Below, piece after piece: positions 22,155-29,307 of a DNA stretch of 32,000 bases; position 1 is the first letter of the stretch, and the number at the start of each line of letters is the position of its first letter. The translations under genes were made by a program, and so were the position numbers. Source of the DNA: Acaryochloris thomasi RCC1774 (GTDB lineage Bacteria > Cyanobacteriota > Cyanobacteriia > Thermosynechococcales > Thermosynechococcaceae). The notes beneath the pieces were generated by a model. It worked only from the letters and a program-made list of their open reading frames with translations, was not told where the DNA came from and did no database searches. The stretch is taken from assembly GCF_003231495.1 (NCBI RefSeq), contig NZ_PQWO01000015.1, positions 90,001 through 122,000 of the forward strand, written 5' to 3'.

Positions 22155-23237
22155 GTGAGCAACTCTCGAAATTTGAACGTGTCAGGAAATCGCAGGTACT
22201 ATAGCAAGGCCATCACCTTAATGGAACAGGTTGTTGACAGAGAGAAGAAAACGCGTCAGACAACCCTGACAGCGCCAACGACAGGTCTCCTGGCTAGCGG
22301 TTTGAAAGACTATTGGTACGCTGTTGAATTTTCTTCTAAGCTTCAGGACGCAACCCTCATCTCCTTTGAACTTTTTGATCAGCCCTGGGTTCTTTTTCGA
22401 GATCGCCAGGGGCAAGTTGGCTGTATCCAAGACGAATGCGCTCACCGTGCCTGCCCGCTATCTCTAGGGCAAGTGGTAGACGGAACCGTGCAGTGTGGCT
22501 ACCACGGTTGGCAGTACGATGCCAGCGGTAGCTGTACCCACATGCCATCTTGTCAGCACATTCAGGTGCAGATCAAAAGCCTACCCTGCCAAGAACAAAA
22601 TGGGATGATTTGGGTCTGGCCAGGTTCAGCACAGCCAACGGAACTGTCTGAACACATTTATCAGCTTCCAGAGGGGTTTCAGCTCCATGCTGAAGTCGCG
22701 ATGGAGCTACCCGTTGAGCATGGCTTACTGCTGGAAAATCTCCTGGACCTTGCCCATGCACCTTTCACTCACACCGGTACGTTTGCTAGGGGCTGGTCTG
22801 TACCTGACTTAGTAAGGTTTATGACCCCCCAGACTCCCCTGACGGGACATTGGGATCCTTACCCCATTGAAATGTCCTTTGAGCCACCTTGCTACGTGAT
22901 CAGTACCATTGGTCTACGCGGCAAAACCTGCGGTCGCCATCTGCATCAGCTACACTGCTGCCTACCCGCAGGTCAGGGTAAAACCCGACTGCTCTATCAA
23001 CTTTCGCTGGATTTTTATGGCTGGGCCAGATTTCTGCCTGGTAAAGATCGGTTCTGGCGCTCGATGGCCCAGCGCGTGATTGACGAAGACCTGCGGTTGG
23101 TCGTAGGTCAGCAAGATCGACTTGCTGCAGGCGCGGACATTTGGCGAACACCTGTGGGATATGACAAGTTAGGGATTAGCTATCGTCGCTGGCGCAATCA
23201 GATTGAGCAAAGCAGCCCTGATTGGCAGGAACGGTAG
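22155..23237 (+). CDS. cao: chlorophyllide a oxygenase (chlorophyll b synthase), Rieske non-heme iron oxygenase
   Basis: Rieske motif C95-x-H97...C114-x2-H117 (nt 22437-22505). Mononuclear iron motif E-x3-D-x2-H-x4-H in ENLLDLAHAPFTH. Long blocks match the plant/algal CAO catalytic domain as I remember it (LLDLAHAPFTHT-TFA-GWSVP, WDPYPI-M-F-PPC, HLHQLH-CLP, KTRLLY--SLDF, EDLRLV-GQQ, YDKLG--YR-WRN). The ORF opens with GTG 22155; ATG 22221 (MEQVVD) is an alternative start. Confidence 0.8.
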   Translation: MSNSRNLNVSGNRRYYSKAITLMEQVVDREKKTRQTTLTAPTTGLLASGLKDYWYAVEFSSKLQDATLISFELFDQPWVLFRDRQGQVGCIQDECAHRACPLSLGQVVDGTVQCGYHGWQYDASGSCTHMPSCQHIQVQIKSLPCQEQNGMIWVWPGSAQPTELSEHIYQLPEGFQLHAEVAMELPVEHGLLLENLLDLAHAPFTHTGTFARGWSVPDLVRFMTPQTPLTGHWDPYPIEMSFEPPCYVISTIGLRGKTCGRHLHQLHCCLPAGQGKTRLLYQLSLDFYGWARFLPGKDRFWRSMAQRVIDEDLRLVVGQQDRLAAGADIWRTPVGYDKLGISYRRWRNQIEQSSPDWQER

Positions 23238-23377
23238 CCATCAGCGGCTTTCTAACATGGGCATATTGGCACTCGACGGCTGCGAGTGCTTAAAGAATTC
23301 GCAATATACTGCAGTCTCAAGTTTGGCTGCGGGCATAATAAGTCAAACTTAAGCAAAACTTAATCAGGGGTACCGTT

Positions 23378-23680
23378 ATGGTCTTGCATCCTGAGTTTAA
23401 GCGGAGTACGCTTCAGTTCTGGCGGCAGATGGAAATGTTCCATGTGTTTATCGGCCATCCTGAACTGGAGGTAGAAGTCTCCTACGACCTAAAGCCGATT
23501 CAACGCATCTTTATTCATTCTGACCACTGTGCTTTAGAGGTACCTGAGGTTCCGGCCATTACGTTTCGGGCAACGGTGATTGATACGCTGCCCATCGAAT
23601 CAGTGGAAACCATCATCCGCCGGTTTAGTTTTAATGCTGCAGACCAATCGTATATCGCCACCCTCGGCATGATTGGCTAG
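23378..23680 (+). CDS. hypothetical protein (100 aa)
   Basis: Clean ORF 140 nt downstream of cao on the same strand, with a purine-rich AGGGG 7 nt before the ATG. I recognise no motif. Confidence 0.5.
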   Translation: MVLHPEFKRSTLQFWRQMEMFHVFIGHPELEVEVSYDLKPIQRIFIHSDHCALEVPEVPAITFRATVIDTLPIESVETIIRRFSFNAADQSYIATLGMIG

Positions 23681-23690
23681 CGCGGTTTTC

Positions 23691-24252
23691 CTATTCTTTC
23701 AGCCAAGCAAACAGTTCTTTGACCGTTAAGTCAAAGGCTTCAGCAAAATCAGGCACGGGTAACTTCGCCTCCATTTCTTCGTAGAAGGCGGTCGACTGAT
23801 TAGGGCAGTAAACAAAAACCAACTGTTCTGCGGGGTCGATGAGCCACCCCATTTGAGTGCCATGACTGAGACAGTGCAAAATATTTTTCACAACTTCTGT
23901 ATAACTTTGTCCCGGCGACAAAATCTCGATTGTCCAGTCAGGCACAAGAGAAAATATATTTGTAACTTCTCCCTTTTGATCACGGGGAATACGGTCCTAA
24001 AGGAGAACGGCAATATCAGGAACAGTAGAGCGATCTCCAAAGGTACAGCGCAGTTCAGGGAATGTCCGAGCTATTCGCTGCGCTTTGACGACAGAGTTGA
24101 GGGCCGATACTAACTCCTTGAATGACGCTATGTTTTCCTTGCGACATCGGCTTTTGAATAATATTTCCATCAATGTACTCACCGGCAGGTTCTGTTTCTG
24201 GTAGGTCCAGAAAAGCTTCCAGCGTGAGTACTTTTTGAGGTACTTGAAGCAT
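23691..24252 (-). pseudogene. Uma2-family (DUF820) endonuclease, disrupted by one frameshift and one nonsense codon
   Basis: Three ORF fragments are collinear with Uma2 proteins: MLQVPQKVLTLEAFLDLPETEPAGEYIDGNIIQKPMSQGKHSVIQ (frame A), ELVSALNSVVKAQRIARTFPELRCTFGDRSTVPDIAVLL (frame B) and DRIPRDQKGEVTNIFSLVPDWTIEILSPGQS... (frame B). The frame shifts near 24115-24122. The in-frame TAG at 23997-23999 sits where family members have Trp (TGG) in the W-(D/E)-R-I-P segment. Confidence 0.8.
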
Positions 24253-24253
24253 G

Positions 24254-25489
24254 TTAGTGAGATTCTGAACTAAATTTTTCGATACAGCGCAGAAAAATTT
24301 CTACCCCTATCCCTAAAGCCGTTTCGTCGAAGTCGAAGCGAGGATGGTGGTGGGGATAGGCTAAGCCACGTTCCTTATTAGCTGCGCCGACAAAGAAGTA
24401 GCAGCCTGGCACTTCCTGCAAAAAATAAGACATATCTTCACCGCCCATAGTCTGACACTCAGGAACAACGCCCACCGGGGTTTCGATAACGGTTTCAGCC
24501 ACTGAACGCACTAGCTGTGCCATCTTGTCATCGTTGATCACGGCCGGATACAAGGGCCAATAGTTGAGGTCGTAGGTCGCGCCGTGGCTTTGGCAAATTC
24601 CGGCAACAATGTCTTCGACGCGCTTGCCAATCACGTTTTCTAGTTCGGGGTTGAAGTAGCGCACCGTGCCGGTCATGCGGGCGGAGTCGGCAATCACGTT
24701 ATTGGCAACCCCCGCATGGAGTTCGCCTACGGTTACAACGGCAGACTCTAGCGGATTGACGGTGCGAGAAACAATGGTCTGCAGCGCATTCACAATTTGA
24801 GCCGCCACTACGACAGAATCAACGGTCTGGTGGGGCATCGCTCCGTGACCGCCTTTTCCTTGGATGTGACATTCAAATAACTCGACTGCCGCCATCAGGG
24901 GACCGCTGCGGACACCAATGGTTCCGAGGGGCAAGTTGTTCCAAAGATGGAGACCGATAATGGCGTCTACGTCAGGATTTTTGAGCGCCCCTTCTTCAAT
25001 CATGGGCTTGGCTCCCCCCGGCGATTCTTCGGCGGGTTGGAAGATCAGTTTGAGGGTGCCTTTCAAGTGCTCACGGCTTCGGGAAAGGTGGTAGGCAGTG
25101 CCCAGTGCGATCGCAACATGCCCGTCATGACCACAGGCATGCATCCGGCCATCATGCTTAGAGCGGTAGGGAACCTGATTGGCCTCTTGGACCGGCAGCG
25201 CATCCATATCGGCCCGAATCGCCAACACCGGCCCCGGCAAATCCCCCTCAACGGTGGCAATGATTCCAGTTTTTGCTACCCCTGTTTGATGATCAATGCC
25301 CCATTCCGTCAACTTTTGGGAGACAACCTCTGCGGTACGAAATTCTTCAAAGCCTAGTTCAGGATGCTGGTGAAGATCGCGGCGCCAATTGACAAGATCA
25401 GCCTGAAGCAACTGGATTTCGGGTCGAATGTGGGGGGTAAACGTGACAGGAGTCGTAACCATATACGCTATTGAAGGGAATATCTTCAC
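24254..25489 (-). CDS. M20-family amidohydrolase (N-acyl-L-amino acid / hippurate hydrolase-like)
   Basis: LVNWRRDLHQHPELGFEEFRTA, IRADMDALPV, MHACGHDGH and FQPAEE are the metal-binding blocks of the M20D/ILR1-like subfamily. The start may be Met10 (25462). Confidence 0.85.
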   Translation of the reverse strand: MKIFPSIAYMVTTPVTFTPHIRPEIQLLQADLVNWRRDLHQHPELGFEEFRTAEVVSQKLTEWGIDHQTGVAKTGIIATVEGDLPGPVLAIRADMDALPVQEANQVPYRSKHDGRMHACGHDGHVAIALGTAYHLSRSREHLKGTLKLIFQPAEESPGGAKPMIEEGALKNPDVDAIIGLHLWNNLPLGTIGVRSGPLMAAVELFECHIQGKGGHGAMPHQTVDSVVVAAQIVNALQTIVSRTVNPLESAVVTVGELHAGVANNVIADSARMTGTVRYFNPELENVIGKRVEDIVAGICQSHGATYDLNYWPLYPAVINDDKMAQLVRSVAETVIETPVGVVPECQTMGGEDMSYFLQEVPGCYFFVGAANKERGLAYPHHHPRFDFDETALGIGVEIFLRCIEKFSSESH

Positions 25490-25549: not shown

Positions 25550-26371
25550 ATGGCTGATTTATTTCCACTGCAAGGTCGCACTGCTGTTGTCACGGGCAGT
25601 ACGCGGGGCATTGGCCTCATCATGGCTCAGGCGCTCATTGCCGCAGGAGCGAATGTTGTGGTGTCCTCACGATCAGAGACTGGGGCCGTCTGTGAGCAGC
25701 TTGAACGGAATGCGTTGGCTCCGGGCACGGGCCAGATCATGGGCACCACCTGTGACGTTACCTCTTTAGGACAGGTGGAACAGCTAGCAGCTAAAACCAT
25801 TGAAAGGTTTGGGCAAATTGATATTTGGATTAACAATGCCGGAATTGCCAGTCCCTATGCTCAGACCCTTGATATCCCCATCGAGCGCTGGAAACGGGTG
25901 GTGCAGACGAATCTTTACGGCACCTATCATGGAACAACGGTCGCTCTCCAGCACATGTTAGAGCGTAACCAAGGCAAGATTGTGAATGTGTTCGGTGCCG
26001 GCGATCGAGATAGCCGCGTCGATAAGTATGGCTACATGAGTGCCTATGCCACGTCTAAATCGGCGGTACGACGATTCACATTGGTCATGGCGGAAGAATA
26101 CAAACAGACCCCGATCTCAATTTTGGGACTACGGCCTGGTTTAGTGGCAACTGACTTGATGACCAAGATTGAGCCACTGACCGATGAAGCAGCCCAGCGT
26201 CTCAAGGGGCTAAGTTTTGCTTTATTTCTATTTACGACACCTGCGGAGCAGATCCAGACCACTATCGTCAAGATGGTCTCTAGCACCACGGATGGGGTTA
26301 GCGGCCAGGTTTATCGCTGTCGGGTCACAGTCCCTACTATTGTTCAGCGCTGGATAAAGCGATCACGGTGA
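25550..26371 (+). CDS. short-chain dehydrogenase/reductase, NOL/NYC1-like (candidate chlorophyll b reductase)
   Basis: Classical SDR motifs are TGSTRGIG (the TGxxxGxG motif), NNAG and YATSK (the YxxxK motif). The blocks VTGSTRGIG, IDIWINNAG, GAG-(D/S)...AY-ATK-(S)-(A/V) and L-PG-V-TDL match my recollection of plant NOL. The subfamily call is less certain than the SDR call. Confidence 0.85.
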   Translation: MADLFPLQGRTAVVTGSTRGIGLIMAQALIAAGANVVVSSRSETGAVCEQLERNALAPGTGQIMGTTCDVTSLGQVEQLAAKTIERFGQIDIWINNAGIASPYAQTLDIPIERWKRVVQTNLYGTYHGTTVALQHMLERNQGKIVNVFGAGDRDSRVDKYGYMSAYATSKSAVRRFTLVMAEEYKQTPISILGLRPGLVATDLMTKIEPLTDEAAQRLKGLSFALFLFTTPAEQIQTTIVKMVSSTTDGVSGQVYRCRVTVPTIVQRWIKRSR

Positions 26372-26387: not shown

Positions 26388-26873
26388 CTACTGCGGCATA
26401 TATTTTTGCACAACAGACCAGCCCGACAGTGAAACGAGTGCTAGCGCGACAAACAGAAGGCTGTTGATTCTGAGATGTAACGGTCGCGCCCAAGGACGTT
26501 GAGGGTGAATGCGCGTCGCCGACCAGGCAGAAGCGAAGGAAAGAGCAACCACAATTAATCCGACCGGAAGATGCCATGAATGGCCCAGGCTTCCGTAGTG
26601 GCCCAGTGTACCCACTAGACCAATGGCAAGTAGATTCACAATCAGCAGTACGAGGGCAATGCCTAAGCCTCGATGCAGAATACGAAGCCATTTCTGGGGT
26701 CTCGCACCGGGAGCAAGTCTCTGCCTTCTCAGCACCAGACCAACAGCGGCCAACCCAAAAAACAGCATGACAGTGAGGCCCATAGACCAGGCTGCAATTC
26801 GCCAGAGCCACATAAAGGAGGGTAAGTGCACGATGTTACTCCCACGATCACGAGTGCAAGCAAATGGTAGCAA
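26388..26873 (-). CDS. DUF4079-like integral membrane protein
   Basis: Four predicted TM helices with conserved-looking His residues (LHRGLG, GHYGSLGHSWH), a size and pattern typical of the cyanobacterial/plastid DUF4079 family. The probable start is the internal MWLWRIAAW (26813). Confidence 0.55.
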   Translation of the reverse strand: MLPFACTRDRGSNIVHLPSFMWLWRIAAWSMGLTVMLFFGLAAVGLVLRRQRLAPGARPQKWLRILHRGLGIALVLLIVNLLAIGLVGTLGHYGSLGHSWHLPVGLIVVALSFASAWSATRIHPQRPWARPLHLRINSLLFVALALVSLSGWSVVQKYMPQ

Positions 26874-28560: not shown

Positions 28561-29307
28561 ATGGCTGATATAGAAATTCACACTCAAGCCCTGAAAATCC
28601 CCAATGGCTCGTTACAAATTGATGCATATCTAGCGGTCCCAAGCGAGCCCGGTCCCTACCCCGCCGTGATTGTCTGGCAGGAAATATTTGGCGTCAACGC
28701 CCATATTCGCAACGTCACCGAACGGATTGCACAGTTGGGATATGTTGCCATCGCCCCCGCCATCTATCAACGGCAGGCCCCAGGATTTGAAGTCGGCTAC
28801 AGTCCTGAAGAAGTAGAGCTAGGACGACAATACAAGATCCAAACGACAGCCACAGAACTGCTCAGTGATGCCCAAGCCACAATTGACATGCTCCATACCC
28901 TTGAACAAGTCCAGAATGACTGCATCGCCTCCATTGGCTTTTGCTTTGGTGGCCACGTTGCCTATCTGGTGGCCACGCTGCCTGCAATTGCGGCTACAGC
29001 CGTCTTCTATGGCGCTGGCATCGCCACCCTAACACCAGGAGGCGGCCCTCCCACCCTGACTCGGACCCCAGAGATCAAAGGGACGCTATATGGCTTTTTT
29101 GGTAATCAAGACGTGCTGATCCCTAATCCAGAGGTCGATCAAATTCGTCAAGTGCTTCAAGAAGCTGGCGTTGAGCATCGGATCACTCAATACCCTGCCA
29201 GACATGGTTTTTTCTGCGACCAGCGCGACAGCTACCAGCCCACCGCAGCAGCTGATGCTTGGCAGCAGTTTCAAGAATTGCTGGCAGGAACCTTTGCAAA
29301 TCGCTAG
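28561..29307 (+). CDS. dienelactone hydrolase family protein
   Basis: The pattern YPAVIVWQEIFGVN...IASIGFCFGG...HGF is typical of the DLH fold (nucleophile in GFCFGG). Confidence 0.85.
   Translation: MADIEIHTQALKIPNGSLQIDAYLAVPSEPGPYPAVIVWQEIFGVNAHIRNVTERIAQLGYVAIAPAIYQRQAPGFEVGYSPEEVELGRQYKIQTTATELLSDAQATIDMLHTLEQVQNDCIASIGFCFGGHVAYLVATLPAIAATAVFYGAGIATLTPGGGPPTLTRTPEIKGTLYGFFGNQDVLIPNPEVDQIRQVLQEAGVEHRITQYPARHGFFCDQRDSYQPTAAADAWQQFQELLAGTFANR

Follow-up and report, generated by a model that had tools for sequence, protein, structure and literature searches.

The window analysed here, a 32,000-nucleotide stretch of the Acaryochloris thomasi RCC1774 contig NZ_PQWO01000015.1, encodes a short-chain reductase (SDR), P0001, of a small protein family (famA) that is confined to CAO-bearing cyanobacteria among those searched. 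Because the family occurs only in cyanobacteria that make chlorophyll (Chl) b, P0001 is probably a chlorophyll b reductase (CBR), and we rate as somewhat better than even the chance that it is a cyanobacterial CBR-type enzyme acting in the first step of the return from Chl b to Chl a. Judged from its sequence, it is a relative of plant CBR and not an orthologue of NOL/NYC1 or a member of their clade. The nearness of its gene to cao in this strain is a lineage-specific rearrangement, not an operon or a conserved cluster. We infer the substrate and reaction of P0001, while its fold, motifs, tree position and phyletic pattern, and the lack of synteny around its gene, are shown here.

The P0001 gene has an ATG start and is uninterrupted (Table 1), and its product matches Pfam adh_short with an E-value of 4e-45, bearing out the preliminary description of this locus as a classical SDR gene. 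Searches with the NCBIfam models returned none at cut-off and generic SDR models below threshold only, and the ESM Atlas likewise returned only generic SDR clusters. P0001 carries the SDR residues TGxxxGxG (T15-G16...G20-G22), N95-N96-A97-G98, N121, Y166, and K170, and the motifs quoted previously (VTGSTRGIG, IDIWINNAG, GAG...Y166-x3-K170, and LRPGLVATDL) were all found in it. Column analysis identified Arg41, located after strand beta2, as an NADP(H)-type residue. The catalytic Ser expected ~13 residues before the Tyr is replaced by Gly149; the aligned PDB enzymes have Ser in this column, as do 20 of the genome's 22 other SDRs. An AlphaFold model (46 relatives) displays a classical SDR fold with a mean pLDDT of 94, uncertain only in the loop after residue 150. 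Nearest PDB matches are NADPH-bound ketoreductases with TM values of ~0.75-0.86 and 25-30% identity. The best of them by sequence and fold, actinorhodin KR, 3-hydroxybutyrate dehydrogenase and FabG, keep the canonical catalytic Ser as well as a Leu in the NNAG motif, where P0001 has Trp. Orthologues from two congeneric genomes yield dN/dS values of 0.07-0.08, indicating strong purifying selection and therefore a functional gene. A promoter and terminator scan gave nothing above chance.

Table 1 Features of the window and related SDR genes elsewhere in the RCC1774 genome (G000).
Feature	Coordinates	Strand	Basis
CAO (Rieske+PaO)	22155..23237	+	Pfam; identity to other CAOs; published cao
Synteny breakpoint with orphan 100-aa ORF	23238..23700	.	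blastn collinearity
M20 amidohydrolase	24254..25489	-	Pfam, NCBIfam
Classical SDR P0001, famA subclade A1, 273 aa	25550..26371	+	ORF, Pfam, trees
DUF4079 membrane protein, convergent downstream of SDR	26388..26873	-	Pfam; neighbour kept in G001
famA A2 paralogue	G000:C8:198098-198880 = L010:6033-6902	+	53-55% identity to P0001
NYC1-clade SDR	G000:C2:298736-299557 = L009:4734-5557	-	tree + signature

Co-occurrence with CAO was surveyed in 401 Cyanobacteriia genomes from 167 genera, scoring the top candidates per genome with a famA threshold of E<=1e-40. The family was detected in five genomes, namely three of the Acaryochloris group (RCC1774 itself, G001, and G003) and two of Prochlorothrix (G030, which is P. 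hollandica, and G074), and CAO in exactly the same five and no other. The co-occurrence that the preliminary description had suggested checking was thus found in this sample, and the 41 nearest relatives follow the same pattern. The survey applies to genera other than Prochlorococcus, whose CAO is too divergent for the threshold used. A second class-level sample of lower completeness largely overlapped the first and added only two Prochlorothrix MAGs, one with a partial famA match; famA was not found in the other, which is 85% complete. Database names and accessions pair famA with CAO in four or five additional lineages. Such pairs were recovered from named records of P01_A01_bin.17, Thermosynechococcaceae MAGs, Cyanothece sp. 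SIO1E1, and Leptolyngbyaceae MO_188.B28. Xenococcaceae/Xenococcus records contain both genes as well, a weaker pairing because the record names are similar, not identical. For the AGGA01 accession, which we take to be Prochloron, the sizes of the famA and CAO contigs are identical (284,007, 1,994,172, and 2,951,036 bp). In total, the co-occurrence spans about six independent lineages, some of them paired by record names or contig sizes only.

As plant reference we used NYC1 (P0130 and P0131) and its clade at 50% clustering, in place of NOL. The NOL/NYC1 likeness put forward in the preliminary description stands at the level of motifs, since those quoted above align with ITGSTRGLG, VDIWINNAG, GAGSGG...YGSTK, and SPGMVLTDL of NYC1. 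It does not extend to overall similarity: BLASTP of P0001 against Sorghum NYC1 (P0131) gives 30% identity and 96 bits, an identity no higher than that of P0001 to generic SDRs. Plant NYC1/NOL and P0001 share TGxxxGxG, the NADP-type Arg after beta2, YxxxK and PG-V-TDL, together with an unusual Trp in DxWxNNAG and a Gly-x-Gly at the position of the catalytic Ser. They differ in that P0001 reads F-G-A-G-D where the NYC1 clade has [DE]-G-x-G-S, and in that P0001 has neither a transit peptide nor the N-terminal extension of NYC1 (517 aa, with the alignment starting from NYC1 residue 184). Searching NYC1 against a library of 1.84 billion proteins returned at least 291 cluster representatives closer to it (E<1e-30) than P0001, which scored far lower; many of these are 260-290 aa long with 40-50% identity, and one is a chlorophyll(ide) b reductase according to IMG. 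When NYC1 was searched against the RCC1774 genome, the best match was a gene on contig 2 (38% identity, 98 bits), followed by the window SDR with 72.8 bits and, tied with it, a paralogue on contig 8 with ~72 bits. The best NYC1 match is a famA gene in G001, G003, P. hollandica, and G074.

Phylogenies were computed with FastTree (100 rows) and with IQ-TREE under LG+C20 PMSF (76 rows, including 22 other SDRs of the genome), and their topologies agree. In the IQ-TREE analysis the famA clade, which contains P0001, receives a support of 100 and pairs with the Chloroflexota-type family famB (support 92). The NYC1 clade and the contig-2 group form a separate long-branch clade that excludes famA (SH-aLRT 100). 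Set against the 22 other SDRs of the genome, famA, famB, and the NYC1 clade group together with a moderate SH-aLRT of 83. The phylogenetic check advised beforehand, run here with NYC1 and the genome's own SDRs, thus upholds a wider group shared with plant CBR and at the same time leaves P0001 outside the NYC1 clade. Column counts draw the same line. Of the 54 ingroup rows, 53 have the Trp of DxWxNNAG, Trp93 in P0001, and all 22 outgroup rows lack it; Gly in place of the catalytic Ser, represented by G149/G151 in P0001, is found in 53 of 54 versus one of 22. P0001 lacks the NYC1-clade signature N-[ML]-[DE]-G-x-G-S and reads N-V-F-G-A-G-D instead. Among the 30 rows of the NYC1 clade and contig-2 group, 24 have Asp or Glu at position 148 and 24 have Ser at position 152; famA members have Leu, Phe, or Ile at 148 and a variable position 152 with no conserved Ser. 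It is because of these trees and column counts that we place P0001 outside the plant CBR clade. The closest relatives of famA outside the family include the famB proteins P0036 and P0039, with 42-43% identity in the family alignment. The closest famB relatives include a protein of Candidatus Chloroploca, a filamentous anoxygenic phototroph, and other famB members come mostly from non-phototrophic Chloroflexota. The neighbourhoods of a famB gene and of a metagenomic famA gene provided no functional hint.

Both tree methods divide famA into two subclades, A1 with the window gene and A2. Within the A. thomasi group, orthologues of the window gene share 79-92% identity with it; a few MAGs contain others at 63-64%. 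Subclade A2 (support 98) comprises the contig-8 paralogue, the Prochlorothrix proteins, the records that we take to be Prochloron, Cyanothece SIO1E1, and Leptolyngbyaceae MO_188. RCC1774 and G003 each harbour a pair of famA paralogues, and in G001, a fragmented MAG, an A1 copy only was recovered. The contig-8 paralogue is preceded by a 517-aa Rce1/CPBP-type protease, followed by an M48 peptidase, and has no pigment genes in its neighbourhood.

A third candidate CBR is the contig-2 SDR, which falls in the same wider group as P0001 but inside the NYC1 clade. It carries the signature N-M-E-G-H-G-S-S, matches Sorghum NYC1 with 38% identity in the C-terminal part, and is divergent from an adjacent Pcb/CP43-like antenna gene (PF00421; L009:5971-7014, + strand). 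In this assembly a 1-base frameshift interrupts the SDR gene at a G-run that separates ...AIQAWG from IVDVWINNAG..., while the Dus-SDR-pcb order is intact in the congener G002, where the SDR is in a single frame with 92% identity. CAO and famA were not found in G002 (83% complete), nor was a contig-2-type SDR found in G001, G003, or Prochlorothrix. Unlike famA, this type of SDR does not track CAO.

The cao gene of A. thomasi RCC1774, a Chl b-containing Acaryochloris, has been published (PMC6002478). The CAO encoded in the window is 97-63% identical to cyanobacterial CAOs and 50-59% identical to plant CAOs. Its listed GTG start at 22155 is probably too far upstream: the matching sequence in G003 has stop codons across the N-terminal stretch 22155-22220, and the true start is probably the ATG near 22221 (MEQVV...), which is likelier because cyanobacterial orthologues are ~338-352 aa long. 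A distance of 2,312 bp separates the end of cao from the start of the SDR gene, downstream on the same strand, in line with the ~2.3 kb reported earlier. The oppositely oriented M20 gene between them, convergent to cao and divergent from the SDR gene with a gap of 60 bp to the latter, means that cao and the SDR gene cannot be co-transcribed. Collinearity by blastn with G003 (contig C167) runs from ~12.9 kb to position 23226, at the end of cao, and then stops. The M20-SDR(-DUF4079) block is collinear from 23701 with G001 (contig C148) and from 24271 with G003, on other contigs, and CAO was not found within 10 kb of the block in either genome. The breakpoint at ~23.2-23.7 kb, joining a UbiD-CAO block to the M20-SDR-DUF4079 block, is unique to the RCC1774 genome. 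An orphan ORF of 100 aa (23378-23680, + strand) sits exactly at this breakpoint; it has no Pfam match, and the collinear stretches of G001 and G003 contain nothing equivalent.

The preliminary description had proposed a linked locus for Chl a/b interconversion and a check of CAO-SDR synteny across cyanobacterial genomes. Adjacency was not kept in the genomes searched: CAO and famA reside on different contigs in G001, G003, and both Prochlorothrix genomes, and in P. hollandica these contigs measure 349 kb and 371 kb. A metagenomic famA contig, obtained in a scan with a Prochloron-type SDR that gave one close relative, is assembled on one side of the gene only, and CAO was not found there within 10 kb. 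In P01_A01_bin.17, the closest relative, CAO and famA are on separate short contigs, which are uninformative for linkage. A linked, co-regulated pair of cao and SDR genes could draw on their spacing and common strand in RCC1774, and on a shared pathway if the SDR is a CBR; given the convergent M20 gene in between, the end of G003 collinearity at cao, the M20-SDR block located elsewhere in G001 and G003, the large separate contigs of P. hollandica, and the metagenomic contig, we regard it as highly improbable. The separate contigs and the breakpoint therefore identify the RCC1774 adjacency as a lineage-specific junction. The M20-SDR pair itself is retained in both congeners, G001 and G003. The M20 hydrolase was considered as a functional partner of the SDR and rejected, because in relatives without Chl b (G013, G004, and G012) the M20 orthologues have no adjoining SDR.

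Two further observations concern possible pigment genes. A dienelactone hydrolase-family alpha/beta hydrolase (28561-29307, + strand), 2.2 kb downstream of the SDR gene, gives a sub-threshold match to Pfam Chlorophyllase (E 6e-4; 19 bits versus a cut-off of 26), which probably reflects just a shared fold. The window holds no FrhB/BciB (HCAR-family) gene, as had been stated for HCAR homologues. Elsewhere in the genome, two FrhB/FdhB genes of the BciB / F-DVR / HCAR family were identified (G000:C10:164190-164630 and G000:C12:18442-18912, both on the - strand), either of which could supply the second step from Chl b to Chl a.

P0001 is best pictured as a soluble, classical short-chain reductase that would probably depend on NADPH, a cofactor suggested because of Arg41 after beta2 and the NADPH-bound closest structures. 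It would reduce the 7-formyl group of Chl(ide) b by hydride transfer from NADPH, giving 7-hydroxymethyl Chl(ide) a, with Tyr166, Lys170, and Asn121 as the predicted catalytic core; the usual catalytic Ser is missing from P0001 and likewise from plant CBR. A BciB/HCAR-family enzyme encoded elsewhere would complete the conversion to Chl a. The SDR gene would form its own transcription unit, divergent from the unrelated M20 hydrolase gene. A 2022 paper (PMC9003380, section 3.3) states, citing Lim et al. 2019, that both P. hollandica and A. thomasi RCC1774 have had enzymes identified that turn Chl b into Chl a. P. hollandica has a single NYC1-like SDR, the famA member P0029 (G030:C6), 48% identical to P0001, and famA is therefore very probably the family that was assayed. 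The reported CBR would thus come from the organism studied here and belong to the small SDR family of P0001. However, the Prochlorothrix enzyme clusters with the A2 protein of contig 8, and P0001 is the A1 paralogue. It follows from this grouping that the contig-8 gene, and not P0001, is orthologous to the enzyme that was most likely studied in Prochlorothrix; this leaves room for a diverged role of the window copy, and the A1 sequence may indeed have diverged in function.

Several points speak against a CBR assignment for P0001: its low identity to NYC1, its position outside the NYC1 clade without the [DE]-G-x-G-S signature, the occurrence of its nearest non-cyanobacterial relatives (famB) in organisms without Chl b such as Chloroflexota, and the existence of two other candidates, A2 on contig 8, which groups with Prochlorothrix in place of P0001, and the NYC1-clade gene on contig 2. 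P0001 might instead be a reductase specific to the Chl b lineage with a substrate other than Chl b itself, A1 having been sub-functionalised after duplication and the contig-8 A2 protein being the real CBR. Candidate substrates would be another 7-formyl pigment or catabolite, such as chlorophyllide b or pheophorbide b, or else the carbonyl of a Pcb antenna-linked lipid or carotenoid. Such a role is compatible with the co-occurrence of famA and CAO, with the presence of two paralogues in RCC1774 and G003, and with the A2 type being the only one in Prochlorothrix and in the records that we take to be Prochloron; A1 also has a longer loop after GAG (DRDSRVDKYG), poorly modelled with a pLDDT of ~65. 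Yet A1 and A2 share 53-55% identity, famA as a whole shows no difference at the nucleotide-binding and Asn/Tyr/Lys core positions that were compared, G001 shows A1 only (though it is a fragmented MAG), and no neighbouring gene suggests an alternative substrate. We consider this reading unlikely. A variant in which A1 is a second, distinct Chl b-associated reductase, a duplicate of an A2-type CBR turned to another 7-formyl pigment or to turnover of the Pcb antenna, would make the recent juxtaposition with cao in RCC1774 an instance of early pathway clustering; the A. thomasi group and a small number of other lineages would then be the sole ones to retain A1, and we give this little credence.

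P0001 might also be a generic housekeeping or secondary-metabolism SDR without a role in pigments, its restriction to CAO-bearing genomes being due to common descent, or to joint horizontal transfer between 'prochlorophyte' lineages. The absence of a function-specific NCBIfam or Pfam model, the ordinary ketoreductases among its structural neighbours, the lack of conserved linkage with any chlorophyll gene, and famB relatives in non-phototrophs would all fit. Such an enzyme would leave unaccounted for the exact match with CAO (5 of 401 genomes each) and the pairing of famA with CAO in further scattered lineages of named assemblies. The rank of famA as top NYC1 match in the other four genomes with famA and CAO also stands against it, as do the derived W93 and GxG common to plant CBR and the CBR enzymes reported from P. 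hollandica and RCC1774 (PMC9003380). A generic role is accordingly improbable in our estimate, and we retain CBR as the probable function of P0001.

In plants, the chlorophyll cycle adjusts antenna size and degrades light-harvesting complexes. Whether cyanobacteria possess such a cycle is a small question that has been largely answered (Lim et al. 2019), and enzymes of the CBR kind have already been reported for RCC1774. Since the claim of a CAO-CBR locus fails, no new organisational principle arises. What is added here is a genome-wide view, in which the cyanobacterial family appears as a sister clade and not as part of the plant NYC1/NOL clade. With three candidates in A. thomasi, namely A1, A2, and the frameshifted plant-type gene beside pcb, any mention of 'the' CBR of this organism must name the gene. 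Because famA is confined to CAO-bearing lineages, our data suggest that these lineages acquired the reverse step along with Chl b synthesis, by recruitment or transfer.
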